A DNA stretch of 64,000 nt. Origin: Callorhinchus milii (lineage: Eukaryota). The DNA is taken from NCBI RefSeq assembly GCF_018977255.1, contig NW_024704742.1, positions 127,102,001-127,166,000 of the forward strand, written 5' to 3'. The notes beneath the pieces are model-generated. The model made no database searches. It was not told where the DNA came from and saw nothing but the letters and a program-made list of their open reading frames with translations. Positions 4,636 through 62,822 of this stretch are shown piece by piece (the first letter of the stretch is position 1; each line of letters starts with the position of its first letter). Made by a program: the position numbers and the translations under genes.

Positions 4636-5176
4636 TCCTATAGCTTAGTGGTTAGAGCATTCTCCTCGCAAGCAAGAGGATCTGGGTCCGATTCCCGGTA
4701 GGTCGAAACATCGGGTAAGATTCTTTACTCCACACAACTCTGTTTACCTAGCAATAAGTAGGCACCTGGTTGTTAGTTGATTGGTGAATCGCTTTTCCAG
4801 GATAATAATTCCTTCAAACAATAATAATAATTTAATCACTCAATCCACAACAGTTTTGGGGAAGCTGCAGTGTTTTGCTCACAAAATACACAGAAGGCAC
4901 AAGGGACAAATGGGAGGCTGGAGCTAGCCGAGCAGAGGCAGCAGGTGGTAGAGTGGGGGGTAAGCAGATCGGATAGGTAGGGAGGTGCGAGGGTATGAAG
5001 GGATTTGAAAACGAGTGAGAGGATCTTGAAATCAGGAGGAGTGTTACATATGTGACAAGGGTAGCAACCAAGGGAGATACTGTACAATTTTTAAAATACA
5101 CAGTGTATTTTGTGAAGCACTTTGAGATGTCTCAAACACATGATAAAGTGCTATATCAAATTCAAGGATTATTATT
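4636..5176 (+). mobile_element. tRNA-derived SINE (long variant) with a ~200 nt internal insert at 4894-5092
   Basis: A-box tagcttagtggttagagca, B-box-like gtccgattccc, family body and tail tatcaaattcaaggattattatt. Confidence 0.85.
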
Positions 5177-7900: not shown

Positions 7901-8308
7901 AAGGGTGGTGGTGTTGTTTGGTGATGGAACTGGAGTGAGGACAAATGATTCAGAAAATGTTACCTTGGTAATGCCTGGGAAAATGTAGGCTAGCTGTTTA
8001 GGTGCAAGCACATTGCTTGGTGACATTCACCCATTTCATGTAGGGCAATTGGATTAATGAATCTGATAATTATCATATCGAGAACTGACAGTCCAGAGAC
8101 ACATCTGACTTTTTGACTTTATAGAGGTCTGAGTAGGTCAGTTTTGTCCAGTAAATTGAGCCTTATTGAGCAAAGAACGGTGTCTTTGCTGTTCAGGAGT
8201 TCAAGGTGGGATTTCGCCTTGTGTTTAACCTGCCAACTGGGTTACATTATTTCATCGTTAGGCAAATGCTAATTTTGGATGATAATTCCTCAGACCAGAA
8301 GTCTTGAG

Positions 8309-8543
8309 AATATAGAAGTTGCTGGGAACATTCAGCATGTCAGGCAGCATCTATGGAGACAGGAAAGTGAGTTAACGTTTCAGGTTGATGACCTTTCATC
8401 ACCTTTCTGATGAAAGGTCATCGACCTGAAAGGTTAATTCACTTTCCTCTCTCCACAGAATGCTACCTGACCTGCTCTGCTGAGTGTTCCCAGTGATTTA
8501 TGTTTTTATTTCAGATTTCCAGCATCTGCAGTATTTTGCTTTT
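8309..8543. mobile_element. Palindromic Penelope-like-derived element (inverted terminal-repeat pair)
   Basis: Arms ~8320-8400 and ~8408-8495 are reverse complements centred near 8404; contains CTGATGA-hairpin-GAAA. Same family at 40363-40497 and 44925-45145. Confidence 0.7.
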
Positions 8544-8791
8544 TGTAGCCTTGAGAATATAACCTCTTCTGTCAACATTTCCAGCTGGCTACGGTTTCTG
8601 CTTGTCTCACCGTTGATTATATCTAATTACCCAACCAAGGAGCTTGAGCTTGATCCTTGAAAAGTTCTTGATACTCTTAGATGAGAAAGGAGAGCGGCTT
8701 CTTGGCACTTAGGTAATGTGTTCCGTAGTTCGCAGACCAATGCATTGTCTGCATTAATTCAGTCATCTATTCTCCTTCTTAGATTGGATTT

Positions 8792-10580
8792 AACAACAAC
8801 AAAATTACATTTGTATAGCGCCTTTCACATTGGGAGGATATTCCAAGGCGCTGGCCAGTCTTGGACCTGAGCTAGGGGTCGGGATTGGGGAGGGTGGAGG
8901 GGGGAAGCAGGGTGATCGAAAGCACGTTCGAAGAGGAGGGTCTTGAGATTCATCTTGAAGGTGATAACGGAGGGGTCGAGGCGGAGGGACTGTGGGATGT
9001 AGTTCCACAGGTGCAGGCAGAAGGCAGAAATCTATCATCAAGGCAGGGGACATGAAGCAGGCCAGAGCCTGCTGAGCGGAGGTGGCAGGATGGGAGGGGG
9101 TTAGGAGGTTGCCAAGGTAGAGGCGAGCAAGGCCATGGAGGGCTTTGAACGTGGGGACCAGGATCTTGAACTTTGTCCTCTGTGTGATGGGAAGCCAGCG
9201 GAGTCGGCCAAGGATTGGGGTGATAGGGTCACAGAGCCTGGTGCGGGAGAGGATACGGGTTGAAATGTTCTATATCATCTGCAGCCTAAGGAGGGTGGAG
9301 TTCGGGAGGCTGACAAGCAAGGAGTTTGCATAATGAAGCCTTGATGTAATGAAGGCGTATATGAGGGTTTCGGTGGCCTGCGGTGAGACAGTAGTGTCGG
9401 GCGATGATGCGGAAGTGGGGTAGGTAGAGTGGGTCATGGTACGGATGTGGGTTAAAAGGAAAGTTGAGGGTCAAGCAAGATGCCAAGGTTCTGGACTGCC
9501 TTAGCAAGGTGCCGTGTGCATCCATGGATGGTGATGCTGTCAGCGCCTGAGATGTGGATACGCTGACAGGAGCCAATCAGGAGAGCCTCCATCTTGTTAA
9601 TGTTCAATTGAAGAAAGTTTGCTCTCTTCCAGGACTTGATGTCTGACAGACATTCTGTCAGGACAACATTGGTCCTGGAGTCGAGGGTGGAGGCAGAGAG
9701 ATAGGGTTGGGTGTCATGCATACATGTGCAAGTTGACCCCATGTCTGTCGATGAAGTCAACAAGAGGGAGCACATAGATACTGAAACGGAGGGGACCAAG
9801 GACAGAGCCCTGAGAAATGCCGCACGAAACGCCGTGGGGGCTCGAGGAGAAACCATTTGTGGAGAAACCATTTATGATGTCTGTAAGTAGAGGGGCAAGG
9901 AGGTGGAGCTGGGAGGTAAGGTGAAGGGTAGGGATGGGTTTGAGGGAACAGGTGGTTGGTTTCATGCGGATTATAGTGATGGTGAAAGAGGAGTGAGAGA
10001 CAGACTCAAAGGTGTGGAGGGAGGGATGAGTAGGGACCGGGGTGTGAGGGGGAGATGGGGAGGGTGTAGTAGACGGGAGGGTGTAGTAGATGGAAGGGCA
10101 GAGGCAGCTGAGCAGATCCCCTCGACTTTGGATTCGAGGAAGTCCAGCATCGCCTCACAGTCGGCATTGGAGGTGAGGATGAGCGAGGCGTGAGAGGGTG
10201 GGCGTAGGAGCTGCTTGTTGATGGAAAAGAGGTACCTGGAATTGTCCTTGGCCTCCAAGATTGTCTTGGAGTAAATCGACAATTTAGCGGAGGCGAGGGT
10301 GGAGTGCTAAGATTTGATAAGGCCCAGCCCGATCTGCTGATGGACTGTTAAGTTTGATTTAAGCCAGGTGCGTTCAGCAGCGCACACCTGTGCAATAAGG
10401 GAGTCGAGGTGGCTGGTACACCATGGTGACTTTCGTGTGTAGTGAGGGGAGGAAGGGAATTGAGAGTGGTAGAGAGAGAGCTGTGGAGAAGAGGAGGATA
10501 GGTCATTGCGGGAGGAAGTCCAGAGGGGGAAGAGTTCAGATGACTCCAAGGCAATCGAATGGGAGGGGGGGAGATTTTTA
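8792..10580 (-). mobile_element. L2-clade LINE with internal deletions (same family as 54293-56522)
   Basis: Minus ORFs give KSPWCTSHL...[55 protein letters not shown]; (GTT)n tail at 8792. Confidence 0.9.
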
Positions 10581-11840
10581 ACAAGTCTGGTTCGAAAAAG
10601 AGACAAACAACATTGAAGTGTCAAATACCAGTTCTCTTGTCAAAGGAACTTGCTGTTTAATACTAGTTATCTTTTATTTTTTATTTATTATCATTTAATT
10701 TTTAAAATAATATATTGTATTCACCCACAAAATATACAATCAATCCACTTACAGTATATTCTGAAAAGTGCTCTGAGACGTCTTAACAGGGTGATAAGGC
10801 ACTATATCAAATACAAGTTTTATTAATTTTTATTATTGTAGATGGAAGTATCTTTAGCAGAAAGAGCAACACCAGTTTTGATGACCTGCACCAAATTTAG
10901 AATTGATTTAGAATTGATTGCATGTTTTTACCAATCAGGTAGTTTGTGTTTTCTTCCTTGACATTAAGCACTTCTAGAGTCTGATACTCCTTGGGGGCCA
11001 ATTTGACAATTTATAGGCTAAACAGAAGTCAACTGAAGGGGTACTAATCTGTTTTCACTTAGGTTGATAATCCTGGGTTAATTTATTTATTATGGAGCAC
11101 TGTTCTGATTAAAAATGCTAAGTAGCACAGTTTTGTTTACATAATTGGAATATTTCTATCTCATTGTAATTATTTACTTCAGGTATATTTTTTATTATTG
11201 TGAAAAACTGCATTACTTTTAAACTGGTAACCAAACTCGCAACTGTGATGTGCATTTAATGAAATTACAGCACATAAAAAAAAAACCTTACATTTGGTAT
11301 GGCGCCTTTCATGTCACGAGGAAGTCTTGAAGGATATACTGTAAAATACATTGACTGTGTTGTGGGTGAACACAGCAGACAATTTTTACACAACAATTTT
11401 CTACAAACAGCTAAGTGAATGACCAATTTTATTTGGGGAATTGTTGGCCAGGGCACAGAGAGAAACTGTATACAATTGCTAAAGTTGAGAAGTCATTCAG
11501 TCAATTTGGTTTAATTAATATTAAACTAAATTGACTAAATTAAAGAACTTTCCAAAATTGTGCACCAAATTTATACTTTAAGACCAGGAGCTGAAGATCA
11601 TGGAGAATTTCAGACTTCACATTTTCAACTCTGCATTTGTTTTTCTAACTGGGACAAGAGTTCAAGATAACAAGTAATAAGCAATGAGTTTTGTTGGCAA
11701 GAGAATACATGTCTGAAGCTTCACTGTTGATAGTATTTTGGAGCTATGGACTTGTACATCTCATTGAGGTACAGCTGCAGCAACTCAGCTATACCTCAAT
11801 AGGTATAGTCAAAGGGGAAATTCTTGATCCATTCTGCAGT

Positions 11841-11887: not shown

Positions 11888-12178
11888 CCTTGCATTTGAT
11901 ATAACGCTTTTCACGTCAGGAGGACGTCCCAAAGCGCTGCACAGAACACACTGTAAAGTGAATTGACTGTATATTTGTGGGCGAACGCGGCAGCCAATTG
12001 CGCACAGCAATGTCCCACAAACAGTCATAGATTGAAAATGACCAATTTATTATTGATTTTGGTTTTGGAGGGATTATTATTAGCCGTGTGGAGTAAGGAA
12101 ACTTGCCCAAGGTCTGGAATTGAACTCAGATCTCTCACTTGCAAAGCGAGTGCTCTAACCACTGAGCTACAGGACTCC
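11841..12178 (-). mobile_element. tRNA-derived SINE (short variant) with an expanded (ATT)n tail
   Basis: Reverse complement starts ggagtcctgtagctcagtggttagagcactcgctttgcaagtgagag; (AAT)n run at 11841-11887. Confidence 0.9.
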
Positions 12179-12179
12179 A

Positions 12180-13080
12180 CGGGAGGGAGCCAATGGAGCC
12201 TGGCAAGGATTGCATGATGGGGTTGTGGAGTTCAGTATGGATGAGGATTTTGAATTATTTGGATCTTATGATTTTATGGAGCTGGGAAGAAGGGCAAGGA
12301 GGGCATTGGAAAATTGAGTTGGGAGATGATGAATGCGTGGATAAGGGTTTCAGCTGTGTTTGGTGTCAGGTATGATTGGAAATGGGTAATGTTGCAGTGA
12401 TGAAAGAAAGCGATCCTTTGGTGTATGAAGGACAGCTGAGAATCAAACCTGATGTGTCTCGGTTGCGCACAGGTTCAGTAAGTCTGAGGGATAAGTCGTA
12501 GAGGTAAAGGAAGTCGGAGCCACAAGTGAGAAGATTTTATCGGGAGTCGAGAAGGATGACTTCCGTCTCGTCAATGTTCAAAGCTGGATGAACACCAACT
12601 TTCATCCAGGCCTTAATGTTTGACAAGTAAGTAGACAAGAACATCGGAGATCTGGGATTATGGCTGGAGGAGGATAAATAGATTTGTACGTCATCTGTAT
12701 ACATGTGGAAGTTGACCCAATGTCTGCAGATGACATCACTGAGAGTGAACATGTAAATGAGAAAAAGAAGGGGGCCAAGGGTGGAGTCTTGTGTTATCCG
12801 TAGGTACCTGTGTAGGAGAAGAAACCTTTTTCAGAGATGAAGTGATTGTGGTGGGTCAAATAGGAGAGTGTGGTCCCACTGAGTTGGAAGAGGAAGGAGA
12901 GGCAGTCTTGGAGGATGGCATACTCGACTGTGGAAGGCAGCGGAGATGACAAGGAGGCAGAGGAAATCCTGGTCGGAGAGAGAGGACATCATTTGTGACT
13001 TTGAGGAGCGCTGTTTCGGTGCTATGAGCTGGGCAGAAAGCAGGCTAGAGGGGCTTGGGTTGGGAGTGGTATAAATGTCT
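12180..13080 (-). mobile_element. Degenerate L2 LINE RT fragment
   Basis: ORF 12537..12752 VICRHWVNFHMYTDDVQIYLS...IKAWM. Confidence 0.8.
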
Positions 13081-13865
13081 AAACTTGGTAAATGCTTATA
13101 ATCCTCCGCAATGTCGGTGCTCTCTGCCAAAAAAAAATTAAGAATTTGTGTCTGTGGCTGAACTTTTACACATTGTGGAATGGGAACATTCCATGCGAGT
13201 ATGACTCAAACTGCAGAGTGTAATAATAATAATAACAGTGTAATGCTACTGTTATATTGTTAATATTGCTGTGATACCAGGTCACTTTCACAACAATGTG
13301 CACGGTTATGCTGTTTGCTCACACAAAAGAGCCTCACACTACTTAAAAGATGTTTAAAATGCACGTAAGCAGAACACATTATGAATGTGATATCCATGTG
13401 CTCAGGGCATCCTGATGATTACTGTACTGTAGTCCTAATAATGTGTATTGGCCCATTGCCTCTAATATGTGGATGTTTCATTCTTGTATTAACCGATCGT
13501 GAATTTTCACTAAACTGTTACCCTCATCACTTGTTGGCTTCCATTTGATGATCAGAATGCTATGACTTTTCTGGTTAACCCAACTGTGAATTTGCACAAA
13601 TTCATAGCATGATTGCTTTGGCCAACCCTGGCTAAGAATGGGTATCACCTTTAAAAGTTAGGTATTATTAGCTTTACTTTAATGGTTAGTTTTGGTGGGG
13701 GACAAAATTAATTTGCTTGAAGATATGAAATTAATATTATTCTTGGTCTGTCTGTCAGGAAACGTGCTTGAGGTCTCCTAGAAAATAATTGTTCTGTTTT
13801 TTACTTTCCTCTCCTCCAATTCCACCCCTCCCACCCAAAAAAGACTGAGTCATTCATTTTTTTTA

Positions 13866-20621: not shown

Positions 20622-20931
20622 AATAATAATAATAATCCTTGCATTTGATATAGCGCCTTATCATGTCTTCTAGACGTCTCAAAGAGCTTCACAGAATAGA
20701 CTGTAAAGTGAATTGATTGTAGTTTTGTGGGTGAAACACGGCAGCCAATTGCGCACAGCAGTGTCCCACAAACAGTCGTGGATTGAAATGACCAATTTAT
20801 TATTGTGGTTTTTTTTGAGGGATTATTATCAGGCATGTGGAGTAAGGAAACTTGCCCAAGGTTTCGCCCTGCCGGGAATCGAACCCAGGTCTCTCGTTTG
20901 CAAAGCGAGTGCTTTAACCATTGAGCTACAG
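20622..20931 (-). mobile_element. tRNA-derived SINE (short variant), well preserved
   Basis: Head ctgtagctcaatggttaaagcactcgctttgcaaacgagagacctgggttcgattccc; (ATT)n tail. Confidence 0.9.
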
Positions 20932-20934
20932 GGT

Positions 20935-21730
20935 ATAGGAGGAAGGTGGGGATGAAGACCAAAGGCAGTAAGAGAGGTTTTTAGAAGGGTATTGAAAGCG
21001 TGGAGGGCAGGAATTCAAGGTGGAAGGAATTGGAGGGAGAGAGAGGTTCAAACAACCAGGGCAAAGTAGCATGCTGAAAGCTTGCATGCTGGTGGTGGGG
21101 CAGGGGAGATAGACTGGGCTTTTGTTAGTAGAGGGGAGAAAGTGGGTGGGAAAGGAGGAGCACTGTAGCAAATCAGAGGTAAAGTAACATAACATGTAGG
21201 AGCAAGAGCATGAAAGCATTTGGAAATTACACTGAGGATCTTAAATTCAATCCAGGAGACAACTGGAGTCAACTGAGCTTGGCAGGGCTGGGGATGAGGG
21301 GCTTATGGGGCTGAGTATGGAAGATATGGGGTGTTAATATTGGTCTGGATAATGTTTTAGGAGGGTTTAGCTGGGAAGCTTTATGAGAGGGTATTGGAGA
21401 GATGAGTCTAGAGGAGAAGGTATGGTTAGCTTTTCGACTGCATCAACGACCACTTGCATTTATATAGGGCCGTTATGACGCCGAGGAGGAGGGAGGTCAC
21501 TGTTGGCACTATCGAAAAGAAAGGTCTTCAGGCATGATCTGATAAATAGGGAAAGAGGGGGCAAGGCGGAGGGATTGAGGGAGAGAGTTCCAGAGATTCG
21601 GAGCGAAGTGATAGAAAGCATTTAGGTTGAGGTAGGGACTGAGGCAATTAATGCTTTGACGGAGGAAGTGGACATGGTGAAGAACTAGTTGAAAAGCTTG
21701 AAGGAGAGTGGAAGGTCAAACAAAACACCA
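20935..21730 (-). mobile_element. Highly degenerate L2 fragments
   Basis: Purine-rich minus-strand L2-like text (gaggatcttaaattcaatcc; ggggcaaggcggagggattgagggagagagttccaga). Confidence 0.6.
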
Positions 21731-23939: not shown

Positions 23940-24955
23940 CAGGGATTGTTCTCCTTAGAGCAGAGAAGGTTAAGGGGAGATTTAATAGAGGAGTTCAAAA
24001 TTATGAGGGGTTTTGATGGAGGATATAGGGAGAAACTATTTCCATTAGCAGGTGGATTGATAATCATAGAATCGTACAGCACAAATAGAGGCCATTCGGC
24101 CCATCGAGTTTGTGCCGGCTCTTTGAATAGAGCAATTCATGTCAATCCCACTCCCCAGCCCTTTCCCCATAACCCTGCAAACCCATCCTCCTCAAATACC
24201 CGTCCACCACGTTTTTAAAAGTAGTTATCGAATCGGCCTCGACCACCCTTTCAGGCAATGTGTTCCAGATTCGAACAACTCGCTCCGTGAACAAATTTCT
24301 TCTCACCTCCCCTCTGCTTCTTTTAGAGACTATTTTGAATCTGTGACCTCAAGTCACAGACACACCCATCAGTGGAAACAGTTTTTCCCTTTCTAACCTA
24401 TCAAATCCCCTCATGATATTGAAGACCTCTATTAGGTCTCCTCGTAACCTTCTCTGCTCCAATGAGAATAATCCTAACGTCTCTAACCTTTCCTCATAAT
24501 CAAAGTCCCTCATTCCTGGTACCATCCTCGTAAATCTCCTCTTCACCCTTTCCAATGCCTTAACATCCTTCTTGTAGTGTGGTGCCCAGAACTGGGCACA
24601 GTATTCTAACTGAGACCTAACCAGTGTTTTATACAGGTTAATCATAACCTCCTGACTCTTGTACTCTATGCCCCAGGGCGTATAGATTTTAGATAATTGG
24701 CCAAAGAACCAGAGGGAAGTTGAGGGAAACTTTTTTTACACTAGGAGTTGTTACGGTCTGGAATGCCCTGCCTGAAAGGGTGGTGGAAACAGTTTCAATA
24801 ACAACTTTCAAAAGGGAATTAGATAGGTCCTTGAAAAGGAATAATTTGCAGGGGTATGGCAAAAGAGCAGGGGAATGGGACTGATTGGGTAGCTCTTCCA
24901 AAGAGCAGGTACAATGGCTGAATGGCCTCCTTCTGTGCTGTTATATTCTATGATT
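23940..24955 (+). mobile_element. Older CR1 3' fragment split by a younger inverted CR1
   Basis: [16 protein letters not shown]... up to ~24062, resumes at ~24673 (ccagggcgtatagattt) and ends in ATTCTATG at ~24946-24953. Confidence 0.88.
24064..24672 (-). mobile_element. Young CR1 3' fragment nested in an older CR1
   Basis: ORF 24349..24645 differs from the corresponding part of 1650..2243 at 10 of 98 residues; begins with catagaat (reverse complement of ATTCTATG). Confidence 0.95.
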
Positions 24956-29880: not shown

Positions 29881-32244
29881 CTGCATCTATTAAGCAGAGA
29901 ATAATACCTCAAACATCTGTCATTCTTTGTAACACTGGTTGGAGAAGCCTTGGATATAGAGCAAGGATTTTGTGACCTTCCATTCCATAGCGAGCTTGGA
30001 GTTCTTCTCTGGTAATCTTAGAATGGAACTAGTGAATTGTAGACCTTGCTCTCCATTCACAATCAAGCTGAAGGGTGATGTACATCTGTAAAACTGAGAA
30101 CCGAACATTGTATTCATATTTTAAGAAACTGAATAATTTTCCTTCTGATTGTTGATGTGTACCTTTTAAAAAAAAATCTTTAGAGAATTTTTATTTTTAA
30201 AAATGTGCATATTGTCATTGCTGTGGCTTAATCTCCAAGGTTTCCCATTATGTATCTTTCTTTCAAAAGGAAATGTGCTGAAAAGCAAGTGTTCCAAAGA
30301 AATGCTACATTCCTGTTTAATGTGCTCATCTCTGATGAATTGCCTCAGTTTGCCATGTAATGGATGTGGAATTTGGTTGCAGATTCTCCAAATTCTTTAT
30401 TTGCAAATTAAGGTACTGAGTCCATTATAAATCTCCATACAAAGACAATCTCTGAGACTCATTCATCAGCACACACAAACGAAATCCATTAGTAGAGAAG
30501 CTTTTAAGGCATGGTATATTTTAATTTCTCACAGATTAGACTTCATAATAAAGCAGGCACTTGCAGAAATGTGCATATTGAAAACAGTACACTACAATGA
30601 AAAATATAAAATAACAGTTTACCAGATTACCAGCAATCCCTACTAAATGTGGGAAAAATGCCAGTTTCAGAACTGCTTCTTAATTATATTTGAAAATAAT
30701 CATGTCAAGATGGGATTATGATCTAAATTGTCAAATAGGTTAACCTAGAAGATCACACAATAGCACCATGGTAGGTGATATCCTTACATCATCTGATCAG
30801 ATCCCCCACAAAGAATCATTCATAAAATTTGCTGATGATGCCCAGCCAAGTGGCCAACTGGAGTCCTGTAGTGTATTGGTTAGACACTCTCCTCCCAAGT
30901 GGGTGGACCTAGGTTCAATTCCTGGCAGGACGAAACGTTAAGCAAGCAACAGGTAGAATAAAACTATTTCTATTCTAAAAATGTCACAAATGTGATCTGA
31001 TCTAAAACTTCTATTTACCAAATCAATAATGTTACACTGGATTAAATTACCCATTTGTGTAGATATATATCACCAGTCCTGTGATGTGCACTTATTTGAA
31101 CTGTGACATAAGGTATTCTAACTAAGCATTCTAACCAATCTTTCACAAGAGCAGTCGAGTGAATGGAGGAGGAAATATCTAGCCCAACCTTCAAGATTAG
31201 AATCAAAGCCAGAAGGTATAAAATGGTAACTCACTGCATCACCGCCCAATCCCTCAGCTTTATTCAAAGAAGGAGAATATCTAATTTGGAATAAGAATGG
31301 CCAATCAAGCCCACTCCTTGCATAGACTTTGCAAAGTTCTGCTGAGATGATCCCTCTCCATCAAGCTGATCCAGCTACAAATTCAGAAGATTGTACATGT
31401 TCTCAAAAGTATCCCTTCCCTCTTTCTGCTCTTCGTAGTGAGGGATATCCATATTAGGTCGCTCAACTTTTTTTATCCAAGACCATAGACTGCTTCAAGG
31501 TCAGATGTTGCAAGACAAACTTCCGCCCACAAATACACTTTACAATATATTCTGAAGCGCTTTGAGATGTCTTGACGACATAATAAGCCATTATAATCAA
31601 ATGCAAGGATTGTTATTATTATTATTACTTGTCATTTCCAGAAATAAGACTCAACAATTGAATGCGCTTACATGTGGGTTTTTGCTGTGGATTCATGCCA
31701 TTTGAGAATTGCTTGGAGACTTTGCAAACTTAATTAGTTTTGGACACTCAGCCCTGCTCTGTCTTAGAAGAGAAAATGTTCTAACCCCTTGTGCTACCCA
31801 GTGCTTCAGAGGGAATGTTTGGAATTGCATTATGTTCAGAAGTTTAATTGGAAAACATTTGGGGTTGTTTTGCTATCTCTTCCTCACTTCTATTGACCAA
31901 GAGATTTCAATTTCTGCTAAAACTTAAATAAGCAACTATGCACCAGCCAAGGCCAGTCTATTTTTATTTCTTCTCGTGTGAATTTTGCAACAGTTTTATT
32001 TTTGGAGGAGCATTTATCTGATGAAATAGGAAATCATTTGTAAATCAGAAATATTTCCACTGTACAAAAAAAGTTCTGAATCTTATCACATTAATAGTTG
32101 TACTATGACGATTGGTGCATATCTCCATGCCAACATTAGTAAACGAACCTCTGGAAGTCTCTCTCCATCTCATCCCCTTCTTTCAAAAGCCACTGAAAAC
32201 TTACTCCTTTAACCAGCTGTACACCCACTTCCTCCTTCCTTTTT

Positions 32245-33104: not shown

Positions 33105-33363
33105 ACCTGCAGTAAAAGCAAACAAAAGTCGTGCATAAAGCAAAAAAAAGTTGATCATCTTTAAGCTAACTTATGCTCCAGTGATGGTGGAAGTTACTCT
33201 GCAACCAGTTTGTGTCTGCAGTTGTAAAGATGGAAGATTTCCCGAAATAGCTGAGGCGGACACGACAATCATTTGGAATCTCTTGTACAAAGAAAGGTGT
33301 GTGGTGGCACAGCTTATCCCCAAGCGACAAGACCATCAGGGTAACCAGTTGGATAGAGGAGTG
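33105..33363 (+). other. Candidate non-coding (5' UTR) exon of ATOSB
   Basis: Acceptor ttattttctttcag|33105 and donor GTG|GTAAGT after 33363 bracket 259 nt of non-repetitive sequence. The frame that would join the ATOSB frame contains stops, so it is not coding. Confidence 0.4.
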
Positions 33364-33839: not shown

Positions 33840-34149
33840 ATAATAATAATCCTTGAATTTGATATAGCGCTTTTCATGTCTTCTAGAGATCTCAAAGTGC
33901 TTCATTGAATATACTGTAAAGTAAATTGACTGCATTTTTATGGGCGAAAAGTGGCAGCCAATTGTGCACAGCAATGTCCCACAAACAGTCGTGGATTGAA
34001 GTGACCAAATTATTATTGTTTTTTTTTCTTAAGAGATTATTATCAGGCGTGTGGAGTAAGGAAAATTGCCCAAGGTTTCGTCCTGACGGGAATCAAACCC
34101 AGGTCTCTCGCTTGTGAGGCGAGTGCTCTAATCACTGAGCTACAGGACT
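33840..34149 (-). mobile_element. tRNA-derived SINE (short variant)
   Basis: Colinear with 20622-20931. Confidence 0.9.
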
Positions 34150-39870: not shown

Positions 39871-40362
39871 GTCTTTATGGAGTTAGACAGTTCACATTAG
39901 GGATGTATGTTTTCTTATCACCATAAAGGAAAGCCAAAGAATGTTTCTCAAGATCAGTGTTAGAAACTATGGGTATTTCACTTGAAATGTCACCTGGTCT
40001 AGTGGTATCACCAAGTCCATTGCTGGCTTGCATCTTATTTAATGTTGGGGAGGATGGTGGAGTTCTCGGCCCAGATTCCCAGCTGGATCTGTTTTCTTCC
40101 CTTCCCATGTGAATATATTGAAATAAATGGTCCCATTGCTGATGAAAAACCTGCTTGTTTATCAAAAAAAACTGACTGTCCAGCACCCTGGGTCGTCTTT
40201 CCGATGTGAAAGGCGCTTTATGAGTGTAATTTGTTGTTATTTTCATGCTTCAGTGTTCACTGGCAGGAGATTGCTTACCTCAAAGCAATATTGAAGCTTC
40301 AAGGGTTTTAAGTAGTGGCAGGATATTTGGTAGATGTTTGTCCAGTTTAATTACATTTCTAA

Positions 40363-40497
40363 TAGGCAAAATACTGCCGATGCTGGAAATCTGAAATAAA
40401 AACAGAAGTTGCTGGGAGCACTCAGCAGGCCAGGCAGCACCTGTGGAGAGAGGAAAGTGAGTCTCAACATTTCACGTCAATGATCTTTCATCAGAAC
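40363..40497 (-). mobile_element. Single arm of the Penelope-like-derived element
   Basis: gcaaaatactgccgatgctggaaatctgaaataaaaacagaag...ctttcatcagaac is the reverse complement of 8405-8543. Confidence 0.7.
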
Positions 40498-41034
40498 ACT
40501 ACATTTCTACCTACTTCAATGTCTGATCAGACTTGCAAACAAAGTATAGACCTTAAAGAGGCAAGTTCTGAGGATTTCTTGTGCACAGAAGTCATAAAAC
40601 TATTTCAGTTCAGATGATTCTACCAGTTGGGATGCAGATCCAGGGATGTCTATGGAAGGTGGATCGCCCATGTTCTTCAGAATCTTTAATACACTAATTC
40701 TTTGCATTTCTACAATAGACTTTACTCTGCTTTCAGATCTGCCCTTCGAACTTGAGTAGTTGCAGTTCAAACCAACACTATTAGTCCAGTAATAAACCAG
40801 CAGGTATGCACCAAGTTGGCCTCATCCTCCCTGCAGCCTGTTATCAGTATTGTTAATTACGTAATTAAGGACATCTGCAATTCCCTCTCTGCAACTGTTT
40901 GCACATGGCACATAATAGAACCCCTTAAATCAGATACGATACAAATTTTGAATTGGTTACCAGTACAGTATGTTGTTTATAATCCTGGTGTTAAAGCCCC
41001 GCTCATAAATACTGACTGTTCCATATTATTTGTA

Positions 41035-42522: not shown

Positions 42523-42886
42523 TAATAATAATAATCCTTGCATTTGACACAGCGCTTTACATGTCTTCTAGACCTCTCAAAGCGCTTCACAGAATATATT
42601 GTAAAGTGAATTGACCGTATATTTGTGGGCGAAACACAGCAGCCAATTGCACACAACAGTGTCCCACAAACAGTCATGGATTGAGTGATCACATCTTTTT
42701 TTGAGGGATTATTATCCCCAGAAAATCGATCCGCCAATCGACTAACAACTGGATTCCTATTTACTGTGAGGTAAATGGAGGCTTGTAGAACAAAGAAACT
42801 TGCCCAACATTTTGCCCTGCCGGGAATAGAATCCAGGTATCTCACTTGCGAGGGGGAGTGCTGTAACCACTGAGCTGCAGGACTCC
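42523..42886 (-). mobile_element. tRNA-derived SINE (long variant)
   Basis: Full head (ggagtcctgcagctcagtggttacagcac), body and (ATT)n tail. Confidence 0.9.
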
Positions 42887-44924
42887 AGTGTACTTGGGTT
42901 CTGACATGCCCAAAACCCTTCTTTCCCTTTCACGGCTACAGTAAAGGCCTTCTTTCCCTTTGATCATGTCAAACAACTGGATCGTGGTCATTTGTAGTTT
43001 GCGCAGTTGTGACATGGATTTCTAATTTTGTTTGGAGAGGAAGAGAAGAAATTAGTTTGATAGGAAGTTTTCTTTAAAAGAAAGAACTTTTGCTTTGGAA
43101 CGAATAACCAGAAATAGTAAATGAATTCTATTTGGAACCAAGCTTATAATTAGCAAATATCTTTATGCCGGGAGTCAGTAAATGCAATGTTGGTGGTTCT
43201 ACTTATGGAATCCTATCATCAACCAGTGACCAATGCAGCAAAGGACAATTGGAAATGAAGTCAGAGGAGTTATGCTACATATTTATTTTTCAAATGAAAG
43301 GGTTGACATTTAAACGTTGTAAAAGCTAACATCAATATAGCTGTAATTTTTGCTGCTATGACAACATTAAAAAGTATTCAAGATGGTTTCTCAAGAGCGA
43401 CATGACTTTTAGCTCGTCAGTAGAAAATAATGACTTAAGTATACGAATGTTGAGAATACAGTCCATTCTGAACTTTGAAAATAGAAAAAATAGTTTTGTG
43501 CACGCAACTATGGCATCATTGTGGGGTTGAGCAGAGCTTTGCTATTAGCAGCATGTGAATATATCTAAGCTTTTTGCACAGTAGCTTTATTTAGAAGCTG
43601 ATAATATTCCTTAGATGAGTGTTTGGCTGCTTACTGGCTCCTGGCACCCATGCCAGCAATGTGGTGGCAGAGTGGAGTTGGAGGGTAAAAAGAAATTTCT
43701 CGGATTTGTGTATTCCACCAATCTCCAGCGTGCATTTCAGGAAATGGTGCCAAGACTGTCAAACTTAACTTTTTTTTAATATCATCTGAACCTTTCTATT
43801 ACTATTCTGTAGTGCAGTCCAGACCCTATTACAAATTAGTATATTATCTAGGCTAGCTCTTGGTTATAATGGGATGTCTAACCTTCTGTGCTTTTGTTTC
43901 CTTATTCAGAGTAATCTCTTCCGTAGACAACTTTGTATTTTGCTGTTTGAAACTTGAGTTTGTTAATCTCTGTTGTCTTAAGAAGACCTCCGTACTGTGG
44001 TACAACAAGAGTGTATCACGCGCTCTCTTTGTTTCCAAGTTACAGAAGAAGGAGATGCGGTGCAAATGATATTGAGCGAGGAGGAGGGTAACTAAAACTG
44101 ATTCACCTTTCTGTACTTCTTGGCATCTTCTCACTGAAAGACACTAAGCGTTTGTAACAGGTTATCTGTCTCGACACTCAGCTGGGGAATCCCAGAACGT
44201 GAGAAAGCAAAAACGTGTTGGGTATTTTCTCCCTTCTCAGGCTTGATAAATGGTAGTAGGTGTGTGGTGTATTTTTGATGATTACTTCCTAAGTTTTATC
44301 ACTAAATCGATATTCTCACTTTAAAGGGAATTCCAATTTGGAATGTTGACAGAATGAACGTCAAATAGACCCGGACATGGCCATTGCTTTACTTATTGCT
44401 GAGCATCAGGCCTCTGAGTCCAAATCCTTAATGTTTCCCACACGTACCATTCAACAGTACGTGAAATGCTTAACTTCAAGCTTTCAAATTTTGTTACTAT
44501 TAGAATTGGGTGTTTTTCATTTTGTTCTACTTACTTCATGTCTTTATTCTCTTGATTTAGGGTTAGGGTTTCACCCACAAAATACAGTCAATCCACTTTG
44601 CAGTGTATTTTGTGAAGCGCTTTTGAGACAGCTCAACAACGTGATGAGGCTCTATATCAAATGCAAGGATTATTATTATTTAGGGATATTAGTACACTCC
44701 ATTTTCAGTAAGAAACCGAATATTAGAAATGTCTGACCTATCTTAAATGTTTACTGTATTCTTTTTAAAACGATTTTCAAGTGTGGTAAACCTTTATCTG
44801 GAAAATAGAATAATAGATTATAAATATGGAAGTTCATCGACTGTTTACATTATTCTTAAATGCAAGGAGTAGGTTTGTTGATACAAATTATTTACTAATC
44901 ACATAAAGCTTTAAAACCAGGTTC

Positions 44925-45145
44925 AAAACATAAAATACTGCAGATGCTGAAATCTGAAACAAAAACAGAGAGAGCTGGGAAAACTTAGCAGGTCAGGCAG
45001 CATCTATGGAGAAAGGAAATGAGTCAACGTTTCAGGTCCATGACCCGTTTCGAAGGGTCGTGGACCCAAAACTTTGACTCACTTTCCTTTCTCCATAGTT
45101 GCTGCCTGACCTGCTGAGTTTCCCAGCTCTCTCTGTTTTTGTTTA
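44925..45145. mobile_element. Palindromic Penelope-like-derived element, second two-armed copy
   Basis: Arms aaacaaaaacagagagagctgggaaa...catgaccc / gggtcgtgg...tttcccagctctctctgtttttgttt are reverse complements centred near 45050. Confidence 0.7.
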
Positions 45146-47160
45146 AAACCAGGTTGTTCTTGTGAGAGAAGTTAATAGCATTCAACTTAATGTTTGCTAA
45201 GGAATGACAGTTGAAGATTGGTGAGAGTAAATCTGATATAATAATAATAATAATAATCCTTGCATTTGATATAGCGCTTTTCACGTCGGGAATGGACGTC
45301 CCAAAGCGCTTCACAGAACACACTGTTTGAAAGTGAATTGATACGCGGCAGCCAATTGTGGACAGAATGTAAAAGTCTGATGTTTTGAAGTTGGTGTGAT
45401 AGCATTGTATGTTGGACCCCCAAAAAAGTCACTCTACCTTGCAGTAAATGCGGTGAAGCACTTTGAGACGTCATCCTGATGTGAAAGGTGCTATGTCAAA
45501 TGTATGTTTTTATTACGTTTATCTTTCTGAACAATATTCAGTGGAGTGCCATATTGCATTCATTGGAGTGGTATCTATTGGTTGATTATACCACATTCAT
45601 AGTATTCTGCTTTCTTTCTTGATTATTTTTGCTATTTGCTAGTTTGGTATGAACAATGGACAAATGTGTTTTTCTTGTAGTGTTACTCAAGCTAGCCTTA
45701 AGTAACTGTTCTATTAAAAGATGGATTTGTGAAACATCACTCGAGATATTACTGGAAGATTTGCTCATCTCAGTCTTGTATTGAGTCAGACTTGGGGCAA
45801 GTTCTTAATGGAAAAAAGCAGGTGTCAAAATCAAAATCAGAGTCTGCACATTTTGATCTTGAGTAACATTTATGGTGCTGTCTGAAAATGATTGGTGGCG
45901 TAATTGACTGTTCACTTGAAATATCAGTCATTGTGGAGCTGTTATGAACAAAGCTCATAGAGTGCTGAGATGAGACTCAGCAGATGTGTCAGAACTGGTT
46001 ATTAATTTCTGGCATCCTGTTTTCACACGGTAATTGACCATTGGAATGTATTGGGGGAGGGGGGAAGAGATGGCCGAAACTTGTGGGTCAGTTTTAGAAT
46101 AAAACTCAGATATAAATGTACAAGCTCGTTTTCACTGGAGAAAAGATAGAGGGAATGTGTTCAAGGTTTTAAAATGTCAAAAGACGCAGATGTGTGTCTG
46201 ATATCCTTGCCTTTTAAGCTCGATCAGGAATTAAGCTGTGTGTTTAGCACTTTTATGAAAATATCTGAGTTTAGAGGATTATGGACTGCAATCTCCTATG
46301 GCACAAATGAGGATACTCAAAAGAATGCATATCCATGATCTTCAAACTCAGACATTCCATAAAAGATGTTAAGCATACGTCTTATGATATGATGATATTG
46401 ATGGTTAAGGCACACATACACTCACTTATATTGCTTTAATTGCTTCACTGCTACTTCTTTGAAAGACGTTCACTGGAGCAGTGTAGTGATCTGTGACTGC
46501 ATTTTTCCAGTCTGTCGGACCAGTCAAGTCAACGTGAATTGGGTGCAGATTGCATGAATTTCTACAGTAATCATGTGGTATTGTCAAAAACATTTTTTCA
46601 GCATCAGTTTTCTGCCAGAATGGTGCTTTCTGACAGTGATTGAGAAGCAGCAAATGAAGTGGAATAAACAGCAATTGAAGTATTTATACTATGTTAATTC
46701 TGAATGTTAGCAGAGTAACTTGATTAAGAGGAAATATTACATTTTTAGATTATAAAGTGCCAGAATATCAATTATAAACCAGAGATGGCCTGAAACTATT
46801 GGAAACAAGCTCTGGAAATGGACCATTGGCAATGCCCAGTGATATCTGGATATCCCTGCATATTCCTATTTGACTTTTTATTTTTTGCCTTGAAAACTTC
46901 CAATTCCATCTTAAATGCTGTGGTTTTAGCCATCTCAGTTCAGAGTCCTGAGGTAATGTTAATGATAATGCAGCTGACTCAGCAGCTATTAGCAAAGACT
47001 GAGAATCAAATCTGAGATTTTTCAAATCCATACGACTGCATTTTACACTGACCAGTAAACATGTTGGTTGATTGGGTCGGGGGTGGGGACAGGGACTTTG
47101 TATTTGATTTGTAACAAATTTAATGGGAAGAGCATTTTACTGCATCAGCCTGATGGTAAT

Positions 47161-47520: not shown

Positions 47521-47808
47521 TGGGAAGAGAAGAAATAACAGACCACATTTTAGACGTTTTATGCTTTTACAGATCGCCCTTTTCTGTGTGTGTGGACAAA
47601 AATATCTAAACAGTAAAATAATGCCACTTGTCAAGTAGCACCTTATAACTCTTCCTTATTTTGTTGTTCAGATGCTGTGCCACAGGAGTGTCAACAAAAG
47701 CATCTTTGGTTCAACTTCATGAAGGCACCTCTTCATCTTTGTGAATCGCACAACCGTTTTCCCTGCTCTTGGATTTCTACGTTTCTGTGGTGTAAAATAC
47801 AACAGTCC

Positions 47809-48705
47809 ATGAGGCACATGCATTTGGAGAGCTCTGAGAAGGAACAGTCTAAGGACGTACCTCTGCAGGCTTCAGGTCATGCCAATGGCAGCCTCCAAGG
47901 TTCACCAGCAAGTGACTACAGTGTGGACTCTAATGATGTCTCACAAAGAGGTGTTTTGGGAGAATACAGTGAGGGGGAGGTCAGATTTCAAAAGGTGTAC
48001 CAGCTCTCAATATTTTCACACCTATCTAGCACTTCCAATAGTTCGGAGCAGAGAAACTGCAAACAGGGTATTAAGAGATGTCTGAGTGAACAGCATCCAG
48101 ACCTTGAGCCTAATCAGAAACGAATACATGTGCGTTGTAAAAATCCTTCTATGTTGACTGAAAACTTAAATGCTTTTCACTGTGGAACTGACAACGGCAA
48201 TCATCCGGAACCGGTTGTGGAAAAAACAAATGAATTTACAGATCAGGAAGATAACTGTTTCCATGATGGAGAGCCAGTTATACATGGGTCTGCGCAACAC
48301 TTTTCTCACAGTGGTTTGCACGTAGTGGAACATAAAGGCCTTCGGGACGATATCTTGTTAGAAGATGGAGAGACTTGTACACCTGCAAGTAAATCAACAC
48401 CAAAAACTCCCTCTGAGAAATGGGCGCCACCTAAAGTGAGTGCTGGTTTGCCCTCTTCTGAGAAAACACCCTCCTCCTGTGGACAGACTGCTACTATCCC
48501 AAGCCGATGTACAGTAAAACGAAAGCTGCTCTCACCAACAAATGCATTGGGGAAAGAGATGTGCTTAGGGGATGAATGTCCCTCTGTCGCAAAGAAATGT
48601 AGGATTCAGTTATCTCATTCCATCCCAGTATCCTGCAGAAGTACCGATGCCAAAGGTGCACCTTTCTGGAATCACTTACTTCCATCGTCGAGAGATGCAT
48701 CCAAG
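47809..48705 (+). CDS. ATOSB: Atos homolog B (FAM214B), first coding exon (exon spans 47672-48705; 299 codons from ATG 47809)
   Basis: Translation MRHMHLE...VYQLSIFS...AQHFSHSGLHVVE...KRKLL...DAKGAPFWNHLLP matches motifs I recall from vertebrate FAM214B (MRHV..., VYQVSIFS, SQHFSHRGLCVVE, DAKATPFWSHLLP). Acceptor ttgttgttcag|47672; donor AAG|GTGAGT after 48705, phase 0. Confidence 0.93.
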
Positions 48706-49034
48706 GTGAGTGTTAAATATCTTGTTCTTCGCTTCTTGTGCTTTCAGTAAACCATTTCCTAACTGTGATCTTTCTCTTTATCAAACGCATTGAACGGAAG
48801 TCGAGGAGAAAGCATGTTCAATACTTACTGTTTTTTTTAGGAAAAGGGAATTGTCAAACCTGTTAAAGTAACCACCTCAATTCCGCAACCACCCTGGAAC
48901 GGTCCCTTGCTTTGATAATGAACATTGTGTGGTAATTATTTCCAGGTGTTCTTTTTTTTATATCTGTTTGATCTGAGATGCATTTTGTAGTATAAAGGTA
49001 CTTATGTAGCATAAAGGTACAGCTACTACACTCT

Positions 49035-52299: not shown

Positions 52300-52358
52300 A
52301 ATTCTTCGGATTGCATCAATGCTGGCAGAAGGTTAAAAAATGGATTGCGCTCAAAAAC
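52300..52358 (+). CDS. ATOSB: ATOSB coding exon 2 (NSSDCINAGRRLKNGLRSK-T)
   Basis: Acceptor ccctttaccattag|AAT; donor AC|GTAAGT; 59 nt, phase 0 to 2. Peptide resembles FAM214B 'DC...GRRLKG.R.K'. Confidence 0.88.
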
Positions 52359-54292
52359 GTAAGTGTACTTTACATTGTGTGTGGTTTAGCATTGCCAAAT
52401 CCGAGATTCGCTGTATTACCTTTCACTTTATGAAGGCTATGCTATTTTGGTTTACGTTACTGTAAGAGTCAAAATAAAATTGTTTCCATTTGTATATCAG
52501 CTATTTTCCACATTCAGCATGTCAACTCAGGAGAGTTTAGGCAATTAGAGGTTGCCTGTTCTTTGTGCCTTGAGTCAGAACTCTGCCTTCTGTTTGCATT
52601 TTCTCTATCCTTTCCTCTTCTTTCTCCCTTCCCATGTAAAAATAGGATATTTCTGTCATCACCACCTGGACTGTTAATTCAAGTGAGCAAATGCTACTTT
52701 ATTTTTTCCTCTCTCCTCCCCCACCTTCTCTATCTCTCTCTTTCTTTCCCCCCTCCACAGGAGACTAGATTCCAGTTTAGAGATTCAACTAAAATGCATC
52801 AAGAATGATTTAGCCTGGAAATGCTAGCTTCAAAATCTGTGTAATCTGGCTTTTCCTACAACCAATCACAACTGACTTGTTATAAGACTCCAAATTCACA
52901 TAAGTGTAAATTTTATTGTGGTTCAGAATAGACATGTAGCTTTGCTATTGAGCATTAATACACTTTGGGTCTTTCTATGGTTGTTCGAAAAGAAAGAAAC
53001 TGGCCGAGTAGCATTTGAAAGAAGCAGCTTTGGGTATTATTGCGTAAATCTAAATCTTATTTTGAACAGAATCCAATGATCTTCGTTCAAATTGACCTTT
53101 GAATTGAATAATGAATCAATCAGATTTATCGTGCCTCAGGTGACAATTGATTCTCAAACACTGCATACGGTATCCAGATCAATAGTACAAGTATCTCATT
53201 TGTGGGGCTTCCCTCCAAATGTTCTCCAATCGGAGTCGCCCCTCTTGGATATGAAATACAGTAGGTCTCTGAAATTTCATCCAAGTTGCTGTTCATTTGC
53301 AAGTCAATATTTTGAGCAAGCCATTTTGAGTGTTCGAAAGGCCATATCAATAATATCAATAATATGATCCCAACCCTGAACCTGCCCTTGCTCAGTGCCC
53401 ACGCATAAATAATTCTACAGAAGATTCCACATTGCTTTTTGCTGTTATTGCACTGAATTTCTTTAGATATTCTTGAGTGTAAAGATGATCTTAACATTTT
53501 GAAGTGAGTTTTTAAATGGAGTTTATTCAGTTCTTGGAGCTATATGTGCTAGTCTATTTTATTGGTTAACTAATTAACCTTAGTAATTAACCTTGCGGTT
53601 TTATATATCAACCTTTTGTTCATCTGTAAAATGTCAGTGATATTTACTGAATCGTGTTTCTTTAACATTTCCCCAGAGCCTCTATTGAAACACAGTTTAA
53701 AAGTTAAAGGATTTCCTTTTTTTATCAATAAGTAAAGAATGGTTATAAATTAATGGGTACACAATACACTGAACATTTTTTATAGTAATTGATAGAACAT
53801 TGTCAGCATTCTCCCTTACATTGCTTTCTGAGAAATCAATTAACCATAGAACCATAGAAATGTACAGCACAGGAGATGGCCATACAGCCCATTGAGTCTG
53901 TCTGCTCCCTCGAGCAATGTTTTCAGTCCCAGGAAGCAGAATGTACTTAGACCCCTGTTGCAGCTTTCATGTTTTTCTGTGTTATCGCTTAAAGTAACCT
54001 CCTTGCCACATAAAGTTCCTGCAAGTTGTCCCTCCCCTCCCCGTCATGCTACCCTATTATCACTTCTTGAAACATACTGACTAGAATTGTGCAAGTGATG
54101 TCTTTGTTTTCTGCAATTGTGCAAGCTGCACTTCTGCCTATCCGCTTATCTTTGAGTACATCCCCAGTAGTTAACTATGTAGTAGTTTTACAGTGTGCTG
54201 GATTTTACATGGTTGGTTGGCATGTTACTTTGCAAGAAGACTGATATTACCAGAAACTTAGATAAATAAATTGATTTACAATGTGGCATAAA

Positions 54293-56522
54293 TACCATCC
54301 CCCCAAGCCTTCCCCCACCTTCCTCTCGGACATCTCCACTCTCCTATCTTCCCTCTCCCTCTACTCTGAACGCCTCCTTATCTTAGGTGACTTCAACCTC
54401 CACTTCACCCCCTCCTGCTCTACCTCTGCCGACTTCTCCTCCAGTCCTCTTTTCCCTCAACCTCTCCCTCCTCATCCACTCCCTCACTCACGACCGTGGC
54501 CACCCCCTTGACTTGGTGATCACCCGGGGCCTAACCATCTCGGACATCACCATTGTCGATAAAGCCATCTCAGACCACCACTTCATCTCCCTCAACACCT
54601 CAGTACCCCTTCCCCTTTCCCAACCCTCCACCATTACATACCGTCCATGGAAAAAAATGTCTTCCCTCTCCATTATCCTGGAGTCATCTGAATTCCTACA
54701 CCTCTGGCCCTCACTGACCGATCTTCCCTCCTCATTCTCCTTTCTCTACAACTCCCTCTCCTCCATTCTGGACTCACTTGCCCCCATCACCTCCCAAACT
54801 GCCTCATACTCCCATAAATCCCCCTGGTACACCAGCCATCTCCTTTCCCTCAAGGCACAAGTACGAGCTGCCGAACACTCCTGGACCAAATCCAAACTAA
54901 CAGTCCATCAGCAGATTTGGCTTCACCAAGATATACCAATGCGCTCTTGTCTCCGCCAAATCCTCCTTCTACTCCAAGGTTATCTTGGAAGCAAAGGACA
55001 ACCCCAGGGTTCTCTTTTCCACCACTAATCGTCTCCTCCGTCCACCTTCCCACGCCTCGCCCATCCTCTCCTCAAGCTCCCAACTGTGAGGAGATGCTGG
55101 ACTTCCTCGAATCTAAAATCGAGGGGATACGTTCAGCCACCTCAGCCCCATCCACAACCATCCCCACATCACGTCTCCCTCATGACCCACCCCCCACCCA
55201 TCCCCCCTACATTCCTTCGATCCTAACTCTCCCTCCTCCCTCACCACAAATGTCCGCAAACTCAAACCCACCACCTGCTCCCTCGATCCCATCCCCACCT
55301 CTCTCTTCATCTCCCAGCTCCACCTTCTGGCCCCTCTCCTGTCCAATGTCATCAACCTCTCTTTGTCCACTGGTTCAGTTCCCACACCCCTAAAAACAAC
55401 CGTCATCACCCCCATCTTGAAAAAACCTTCCCTGGATCCATCCCTCCTCTCCATCTACCGCCCCATCTCTAACCTCCCATTCCTCTCCAAGGTCCTGGAA
55501 CGAGTCGTCGCGTCCCAGCTCCGCTCCTTTCTCTCTCGCCATTCCCTCTTGTATGTGGATGACACCCAACTCTATCTTTCTGCCTCCACCCTCAACTCCA
55601 GGACCACTGCTGTCCTGACAGACTGCCTGTTGGACATCAAATCCTGGATGAGAGCAAATTTCCTACAGTTGAATGTGAACAAGACTGAGGCCCTCCTGAT
55701 TGGCTTGTGCCAGCGCCTCTGCACCTCAGGCTCTGGCAGCATCAACCTCCATGTTGCACACTACAGCTCACCAAGCCAGTCAGGAACCAAGGTGTCCTGT
55801 TCGACCCTCAACTGTCTTTTCTCCCCCACATTCAAGAAATGACCCGCTTTACCTTCCCTCACCTCCGTAACATCACCTGACTTCACCACTACCTCACCCC
55901 TCAGGCCGCTGAAACTCTTGTTCATGCCTTCATCACCTCCAGACTCGACTATGCAAACGCGCTGCTTGTCGGCCTTCCCAACTCCCCCCTCCACAGGCTG
56001 CAGATAATCCAGAGCTCTGCAGCCCGTGTCCTCTCCCGCACCAAACTCCGTGACCCCATCTCCCCCACTCTCGCCCAACTCCACTGGCTTCCTATCCTTC
56101 AGAGGATCCAGTTTAATATCCTGGTCTTCACATACAAAGCCCTCCATGGCCTCACCCCACCCTACCTCTGTGACCTCCTAACTCCCTATCAACCCACCCA
56201 CTCCCTCCACTCAGCCGGCTCTGGCCTGCTCCACATCCCCCGACCCACCCACCCCATCGTTGGTGGGAGAGCCTTCAGCCACTCTGCCCCCAATCTCTGG
56301 AATTCCATCCCCCGGGTCACTCCGCCTTGCCCCCTCCTTAGCCTCCTTCAAGTCCCGCCTCAAGACCCTCCTCTTCGACCATGCCATCAGCCACCCCCCT
56401 TCCCCTCCCCTCCCTTCCCCCCTCCCAACCCCAGCTCAGGTCTGAAATGCTGTACACTGTCCAGCACCTTGGGATGTCCTCCTGATGTGAAAAGCGCTAT
56501 ACAAATGTAATCTTGTTGTTGT
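54293..56522 (+). mobile_element. L2-clade LINE: partial APE endonuclease plus internally deleted RT and intact 3' tail, in ATOSB intron
   Basis: YHPPK...LILGDFNLH, THDRGHPLDLVITRG, ISDHHFI (APE motifs); YRPISNLPFLSKVLERVV joined directly to YVDDTQLY at ~55551; tail gtgaaaagcgctatacaaatgtaatcttgttgttgt. Confidence 0.93.
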
Positions 56523-62789: not shown

Positions 62790-62822
62790 GAACTTTGCTG
62801 TCCTTTTTATTTTCCAATTTAG

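Follow-up and report, generated by a model that had tools for sequence, protein, structure and literature searches.

A palindromic insertion upstream of ATOSB in Callorhinchus milii is probably an old head-to-head copy of a hammerhead-bearing Penelope-like retroelement end

Results

The ATOSB locus and its repeats

We analysed a 64,000-nucleotide stretch of the Callorhinchus milii genome, referred to here as the window. Searches with tblastn placed coding matches to ATOSB (FAM214B) on the plus strand at 33184-33342 (a weak match, E 1.2e-5), 47659-48711, 52300-52359, 59951-60115 and 62814-62894, and the frame at 47617-48750 has stingray ATOSB as its best match (68% identity). The window is also rich in tRNA-headed repeats and RT fragments. 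Six tRNA-like heads (4637-4702, 12109-12176, 20864-20935, 30862-30933, 34078-34149 and 42812-42884), five of them above the Rfam gathering score and several adjoining the commonest repeat of the window, are probably those of tRNA-derived SINEs. Two copies of a 534-nt repeat (1713-2246 and 24139-24672) lie in opposite orientation, are 96% identical and are far younger than the other repeats; the frames scanned in this pair gave no Pfam match.

One repeat family is represented by three insertions comprising five arms: a palindrome at 8315-8549 (the 8.4-kb copy), a solo copy at 40362-40499 and a second palindrome at 44924-45141. An initial reading made from the sequence alone, below called the sequence-only reading, had placed the family, as a probable location, inside the ATOSB pre-mRNA. 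For the latter two insertions this is likely, as both would be intronic if the 33.2-kb exon is real; for the 8.4-kb copy, which lies 24.6 kb upstream of the first ATOSB coding match, it is not established and is possible only. No clear promoter-marking CpG island was found. Strand skews between 8 and 33 kb (GC +0.069, TA +0.031) have the same sign as those of the 33-47 kb intron (+0.114, +0.044) and are weaker.

The 8.4-kb copy is a head-to-head palindrome with a target-site duplication

At 8315-8549 we found a 235-bp insertion made of two arms joined head to head; a 12-bp duplication of the target site flanks it, and one arm only bears an extension. The span to which attention had first been drawn, 8365-8445, is too short: the palindromic element, flanked by its duplication, occupies 8315-8549. 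The left copy of the duplication (8303-8314) is identical to the right copy (8550-8561), a length reached by 0.045% (0.00045) of 19,954 random flank pairs. For comparison with related sequences, contigs of 4 of 24 runs, carrying three species labels, were aligned to 8200-8700 at 80% likeness (8,490 contigs from run X1, 1,747 from X5, 31,606 from X7 and 11,720 from X12). The left junction was matched without mismatch by one X1 contig (record 1), and the right junction by X1 record 8 and X5 record 24.

The short arm (8315-8401, minus strand) is a pLTR-like end that lacks the extension and is 5'-truncated past hammerhead position 4; at its end point, 273 X1 contigs continue into the extension. 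The long arm (8405-8549, plus strand) is a pLTR-like end with the extension. Related copies of this arm stop at 8539-8546, after which the contig layout shows heterogeneous AT-rich flanks. The extension itself, a one-sided tail at 8501-8549 (plus strand), measures 43-49 nt according to where the opposite boundary is placed. Between the arms lies the inversion junction (8402-8404), 3 nt that are foreign to the family sequence of both arms and whose letters vary between related contigs spanning the centre; the junction is contained in 8402-8407, a 6-nt repeat of 8392-8397. The whole of 8315-8549 folds into a single hairpin (z = -15.2). The arms diverge from each other by 13.8%, about as far as each diverges from the solo copy (14.1-14.9%), so that this comparison is uninformative and leaves a common template undemonstrated. 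Two further acceptor-like stretches, each a pyrimidine tract with AG, lie within the arm at 8440-8458 and 8501-8514 (plus strand). An imperfect inverted repeat of 46 nt (83%) at 11495-11540 does not belong to this family.

Two other insertions share the same end structure

The solo copy (40362-40499, minus strand) has the extension, a decayed hammerhead and its own 10-bp duplication (40352-40361 and 40500-40509), a length reached by 0.26% (0.0026) of the 19,954 random flank pairs. A 41-aa frame in this copy (40354-40476, minus strand) is open through the extension, after the first acceptor-like stretch, and could be the start of a parent ORF, as in other pLTRs.

The insertion at 44924-45141, from another subfamily, is also head to head and has a 14-bp duplication (44910-44923 and 45142-45155; length reached by 0.025%, or 0.00025, of the 19,954 pairs). 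Both of its hammerhead cores are lost through truncation near G8, its centre is the self-complementary TTCGAA (45049-45054), and an extension of 33-36 nt is present on the minus arm only. Its arms are 7.3% apart and differ by 15.6-20.5% from the other three arms; they are thus nearest to each other, as expected if a single event copied one template twice.

Target-site duplications accompany all three insertions (12, 10 and 14 bp), at sites that are 71-80% AT. A head-to-head inverted, 5'-truncated pLTR is present in two of the three, and both of these palindromes have a one-sided extension. Each of the five arms spans the would-be cleavage site; their starts fall between about 5 nt upstream of core position 3 and about 10 nt downstream of it. 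No tandem array was found at the 8.4-kb locus; the window copies are solo or inverted.

Both arms of the 8.4-kb copy carry broken minimal hammerhead motifs

Read letter by letter, the two hammerhead motifs that had been claimed for the centre of the palindrome, one on each strand, were borne out. The plus motif (8405-8439, would-be cut between 8435 and 8436), claimed as CUGAUGA at 8407-8413, a hairpin and GAAA-GG-UU, has C3-A9 at 8407-8413, an extra A at 8414, stem II formed by 8415-8419 with 8423-8427, and GAAA at 8428-8431. Its CUGANGA and stem II are intact, and it continues with G at 15.2 (8432), G16.2, U16.1 and U17 (8435); with G at 15.2, the self-complementary stem III cannot form. Stem I has 2 pairs only, followed by a U-U mismatch. 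The minus motif (8370-8402), claimed as GUGAUGA, stem II and GAAA-CG-UU, has its core at 8402-8396, with G at position 3 (8402) and U4-A9 at 8401-8396. Its stem II pairs 8394-8390 with 8386-8382 and has a C-A top pair, and it retains GAAA (8381-8378), an intact ACGU (8378-8375) and U17 (8374); the 5' strand of stem I is missing. The description of both motifs as probably inactive relics agrees with G15.2 in the plus motif and with G3 and the absent stem I in the minus motif. The C3>G change and the shortened stem I are present as described, but both sit at the inversion junction, where 5' truncation is a simpler explanation than point mutation.

Over the five arms, stem II has 5 bp with 88% of cells paired. 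Its pair 10.1-11.1 is A-U in three arms, G-C in one and G-U in one, and the consensus is G-C. Stem II covariation among the five window arms was not above shuffles (219/500). The core C3-A9 and the extra base are intact in the plus arm and in the solo copy; the latter has the core that had been claimed for it but also carries U at 15.2, two stem II mismatches and a 2-nt insertion.

A minimal-hammerhead descriptor gave no perfect match in the 64-kb window and none in 20 shuffles. When one core deviation was allowed, we obtained 3 matches (8407 plus, 8402 minus and 13530 minus) against 0.55 per shuffle (20 shuffles), and a descriptor with a perfect 5-bp stem II gave 1 match against 0.05 per shuffle (20 shuffles). 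The motif of a single arm is suggestive, standing only modestly above chance, and the two matches on opposite strands, 5 nt apart, mirror the palindrome and so are not independent evidence. The match at 13490-13536 (minus strand, core 13530) lacks both stem I and similarity to the family, falls within chance and was set aside. Among the Rfam covariance-model matches, no hammerhead family appeared at E <= 10 (0 of 19 and 0 of 14 matches). The Rfam miRNA and snoRNA matches at the locus were under gathering scores and were taken as hairpin artefacts. In the window by itself, the hammerhead motif is suggestive rather than proven.

The palindromic layout is predicted to prevent cleavage

Judged from sequence and folding models, neither copy would be able to cleave now, both cores being broken. 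In the anole Penelope hammerhead, C3G abolishes cleavage (PMC11167929). The predicted probability of stem II pairs was below 1e-14, whether the whole element or nascent transcripts of either strand were modelled. For the isolated motifs it was 0.15 (plus) and 0.013 (minus), low values that are due to competing hairpins. At 8382-8402 (minus strand) and 8402-8417 (plus strand), the core can pair with stem II letters or the junction, forming alternative hairpins that outcompete the hammerhead; this self-complementarity could also aid fold-back here. Because of the head-to-head order, the antisense arm is transcribed first from either direction, so that the ribozyme would be buried in a long hairpin. 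Cleavage as a dimer was the subject of work by Lunse et al., described in a review (PMC6765202); here the two motifs are never sense on one RNA, which makes dimerisation in cis impossible. With the antisense arm always made first, the head-to-head layout is predicted to be self-silencing.

Related contigs point to a minimal hammerhead at the family level

Support for hammerhead identity is stronger at the level of the family. At position 8432 (15.2), the aligned contigs have C 60% and T 35% in X1, C 55% and T 44% in X5, C 80% and T 19% in X12, and C 24% and T 64% in X7, all by depth, that is, as summed contig depths and not copy numbers. ACGU is the majority state in 3 of the 4 runs, T being the majority in X7, and T at 15.2 is the expected product of CpG decay. 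The G at 8432 is private to the 8.4-kb copy. By the same measure, 8438 T>C is found in 91% of X1 depth, and 8386 T>C, which restores the top pair of stem II, in 81%. Position 7, which is free in hammerheads, is divided between U and C (52% and 55% C in X1).

The contigs also extend the sequence beyond the truncation point of the short arm. Behind 8401, the loose ends of 147 X1 contigs begin with G, which corresponds to C at position 3 on the sense strand, and the loose ends in X1, X5 and X12 share their first six letters. Taken with 8438 T>C, the loose-end consensus of 3 of the 4 runs yields a 4-bp stem I, AGUU/AACU, with agreement across 30 letters of only 0.41-0.46 (0.41 in X1). The minimal type I hammerhead with a palindromic ACGU that had been claimed is therefore upheld, in that the family majority letters agree with the consensus given in PMC4209133, except that 10.1-11.1 is mostly A-U.

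Among the 32 contig pieces listed, 9 bridge the centre with at least 31 letters on each side and with 13-31 letters different, from which it follows that other palindromic copies exist (two species labels). None of the contigs listed that span the centre is identical to the window.

No autonomous partner was found next to the insertions

We scanned 115 of the 163 frames listed for the window and found no RT or GIY-YIG ORF adjoining the three insertions. The RT fragments at 752-1561, 9717-10154, 12540-12830 and 55186-55839 were rejected as partners, as they are not adjacent to family copies. A match of AP-endonuclease type at 54275-54508 indicates LINEs, and the frames scanned gave no GIY-YIG match; the RT and AP-endonuclease fragments are decayed and probably derive from LINEs.

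A protein search with the 41-aa frame of the solo copy gave no match among 10 candidates. Among 1.84 billion protein representatives it gave 5 matches, none of them a retroelement protein. One of these, P0038 (71 aa, from a 1.5-kb metagenome contig and without a Pfam family), looks like a translated copy of the repeat of the 8.4-kb family and is probably host DNA called as a gene; used in turn as a protein query, it found nothing. The other four were set aside as unrelated repetitive proteins. Scans with motif patterns gave 0 matches in viral contigs and 0 in prokaryote genomes. In metagenomes, such scans gave 0 and then 7 matches, which spanned only 19-22 nt in contigs of 53-67% GC and were dropped as chance.

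Discussion

Comparison with known elements

Metazoan Penelope-like elements carry minimal type I hammerheads (min-HHR; Cervera and de la Pena 2014, PMC4209133). The family resembles the min-HHR of that paper in its CUGANGA, the extra base after A9, the 5-bp stem II and GAAA, and also in its loop-less palindromic 15.2-16.2, UH, short stem I and U-rich upstream sequence. Unlike the min-HHR consensus, it has mostly A-U at 10.1-11.1, a feature shared by one coelacanth family in the table of the same paper. The paper also reports motif pairs on opposite strands, about 100-700 bp apart, whereas the cores described here are 4 nt apart. A text search of its supplementary PDF gave no mention of shark, skate or chimaera, and a text search of the supplement of PMC8557442 gave no match for the shark family. 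We found no literature description of the family, Repbase and most subscription journals lying outside the scope of the search; the supplements of a preprint (10.64898/2026.07.22.740005) may list it.

The anatomy is already published, as the "inverted pLTR plus tail" of Penelope-like elements. Inverted 5'-truncated pLTRs, a tail of 30-40 bp at one end and short duplications are described for EN+ Penelope-like elements (PMC8557442, PMC3846280), the tail being 30-40 bp in the former report and 31 bp in the latter. Like the complex insertions of EN+ elements (Arkhipova et al. 2013, PMC3846280; Craig et al. 2021, PMC8557442), the insertions in the window have head-to-head ends, a one-end extension, AT-rich targets and duplications of comparable length (10-14 bp, with 8-10 bp in the EN+ elements of those reports). 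Unlike them, they consist of the two ends alone, with neither an ORF nor a direct-repeat pLTR. The extension of the palindrome at 44924-45141 (33-36 nt) fits the published 30-40 bp; that of the 8.4-kb copy (43-49 nt) somewhat exceeds it, which counts against a Penelope reading.

Poseidon of Anolis carolinensis (PAc; Frangieh et al. 2024, PMC11167929) offers a further comparison. Like PAc, the family has two end positions, copies that derive from uncut RNA, and a hammerhead within the pLTR, some 100 nt upstream of the element end; unlike the family, PAc is autonomous and was tested in vitro. Acting at AT-rich sites, the anole protein nicks each of the two DNA strands and extends it; it begins reverse transcription at two neighbouring internal positions, the distance between which equals the tail, and its template is mostly uncut RNA (PMC11167929).

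Origin of the palindrome

Our results make it probable that the insertion at 8315-8549 is old and 5'-truncated, and that it consists of the hammerhead-bearing pLTR end of an abundant elasmobranch Penelope-like retroelement, inserted head to head. The Penelope-type structure that the sequence-only reading had seen holds for the end anatomy (duplications of 10-14 bp and a one-sided extension). No RT/GIY-YIG partner could be linked to it, so that the assignment to Penelope is based on the structure of the ends and the kind of ribozyme. The five arms all read through the cleavage site, indicating that they were copied from uncut RNA, and the centres differ between insertions, which suggests that the palindrome was made at insertion and is probably not itself the mobile unit.

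We propose that staggered nicks 10-14 nt apart would each have primed cDNA synthesis on uncut RNA, one at each start site. Both cDNAs would have stopped within the hammerhead core or slightly 5' of it, and their ends would then have been joined end to end through microhomology or a short templated insertion. Given a Penelope origin, we would put the chances of two-ended priming followed by cDNA joining at close to even. Self-priming or fold-back (PMC3846280) is the main alternative for how the palindrome formed, and we give it appreciable though minority weight. Under either two-ended priming or self-priming, back-to-back ribozymes would arise at insertion.

A further alternative concerns the template alone, the palindrome still being formed at insertion: the template may have been an RNA that was short, non-autonomous and limited to the pLTR, resembling a SINE or a retrozyme, with a Penelope protein acting in trans to mobilise it. 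Such an RNA would fit the start of all five arms near core position 3 (about 5 nt up to about 10 nt down), as well as the poor agreement (0.41) of the 147 X1 loose ends, which look AT-rich past their first six letters. Vertebrate non-autonomous Penelope derivatives exist, one of them chondrichthyan, and the family is like animal non-LTR retrozymes in being short, non-coding, type I hammerhead-bearing and pLTR-related (10.64898/2026.07.22.740005). Retrozymes, however, are defined in that preprint as tandem direct repeats, which permit dimer cleavage, and the locus has none; the solo and inverted copies of the window prevent it. In addition, the X5 and X12 loose ends run into a purine-rich stretch (pyrimidine-rich in sense), as if longer copies exist, and Penelope-like elements normally leave very short, 5'-truncated insertions (median 128 bp; PMC9977147). 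We consider a pLTR-only template unlikely.

Far less probable is the view that the whole palindrome is the mobile unit and carries one working ribozyme per strand; the sequence-only reading had described a non-autonomous family with one ribozyme per strand. Related contigs do cross the centre in similar geometry (9 of the 32 pieces listed), but the two window palindromes have different centres, one of them (44924-45141) lacks both cores, the letters at 8402-8404 vary between contigs, and the transcript of a palindrome folds as one long hairpin. Given the differing centres, the duplication that the solo copy has of its own and the loss of the cores at 44924-45141, the two-strand layout is most readily taken as a by-product of insertion.

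Two other readings are barely tenable. A miniature inverted-repeat DNA transposon whose inner ends are hammerhead-like by chance would account for a short palindrome with a duplication, the unlinked Penelope ORF and the lack of a hammerhead in Rfam, but it is at odds with the unequal ends, with duplications that come in three lengths, with a single-arm copy that has a duplication to itself and with the family-level agreement with the minimal hammerhead consensus. Exaptation of 8315-8549 for ATOSB regulation, in the role of an intronic ribozyme or of a hairpin on which ADAR or Dicer acts, might be argued from the strong hairpin, the mild plus-strand skews upstream of ATOSB (8-33 kb), a run guessed to be RNA that contains the right flank (X5 record 24) and the heavy editing of palindromic repeats in frog (PMC5625713), but runs against two broken cores, arms that have drifted by 13.8%, a position 24.6 kb upstream of the first coding match with no promoter-like CpG island found, and miRNA matches that are all far under gathering scores.

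If 8315-8549 is a Penelope-like insertion, as we favour, a more speculative proposal can be made, which we advance as doubtful: that the 5' edge of the hammerhead is a programmed stop-and-join point of Penelope integration, at which two opposite-nick cDNAs are fused. On the sense strand, the loose-end consensus of X5 and X12 has a pyrimidine tract and a CAG ending two bases before position 3 (agreement 0.42-0.46), and the family similarity of the plus arm ends exactly at the CAG before position 3. These letters hint weakly that the CAG may be a conserved splice acceptor. The 5' end of helix I is where the D. virilis Penelope intron ends; in the table of the same paper, the entries for pufferfish and cichlid, read by eye, likewise have AG two bases ahead of the core (PMC4209133).

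Significance

The locus itself matters little, being a dead repeat near ATOSB. The family extends the Penelope minimal hammerhead to elasmobranchs, and annotators should be aware that such palindromes mimic MITEs and miRNA hairpins. Inversion junctions tightly clustered at the ribozyme core constitute a large natural data set on two-ended priming versus self-priming. If the hammerhead edge is indeed a stop-and-join point, thousands of natural traces of two-ended priming would be stored in shark genomes. Each would have started out as a hairpin that silences the ribozyme it carries, and that may be a source for ADAR or for silencing of the family by small RNAs. The Penelope hammerhead fold would then gain a role other than cleavage, and the origin of inverted pLTRs would become testable through junction counts.
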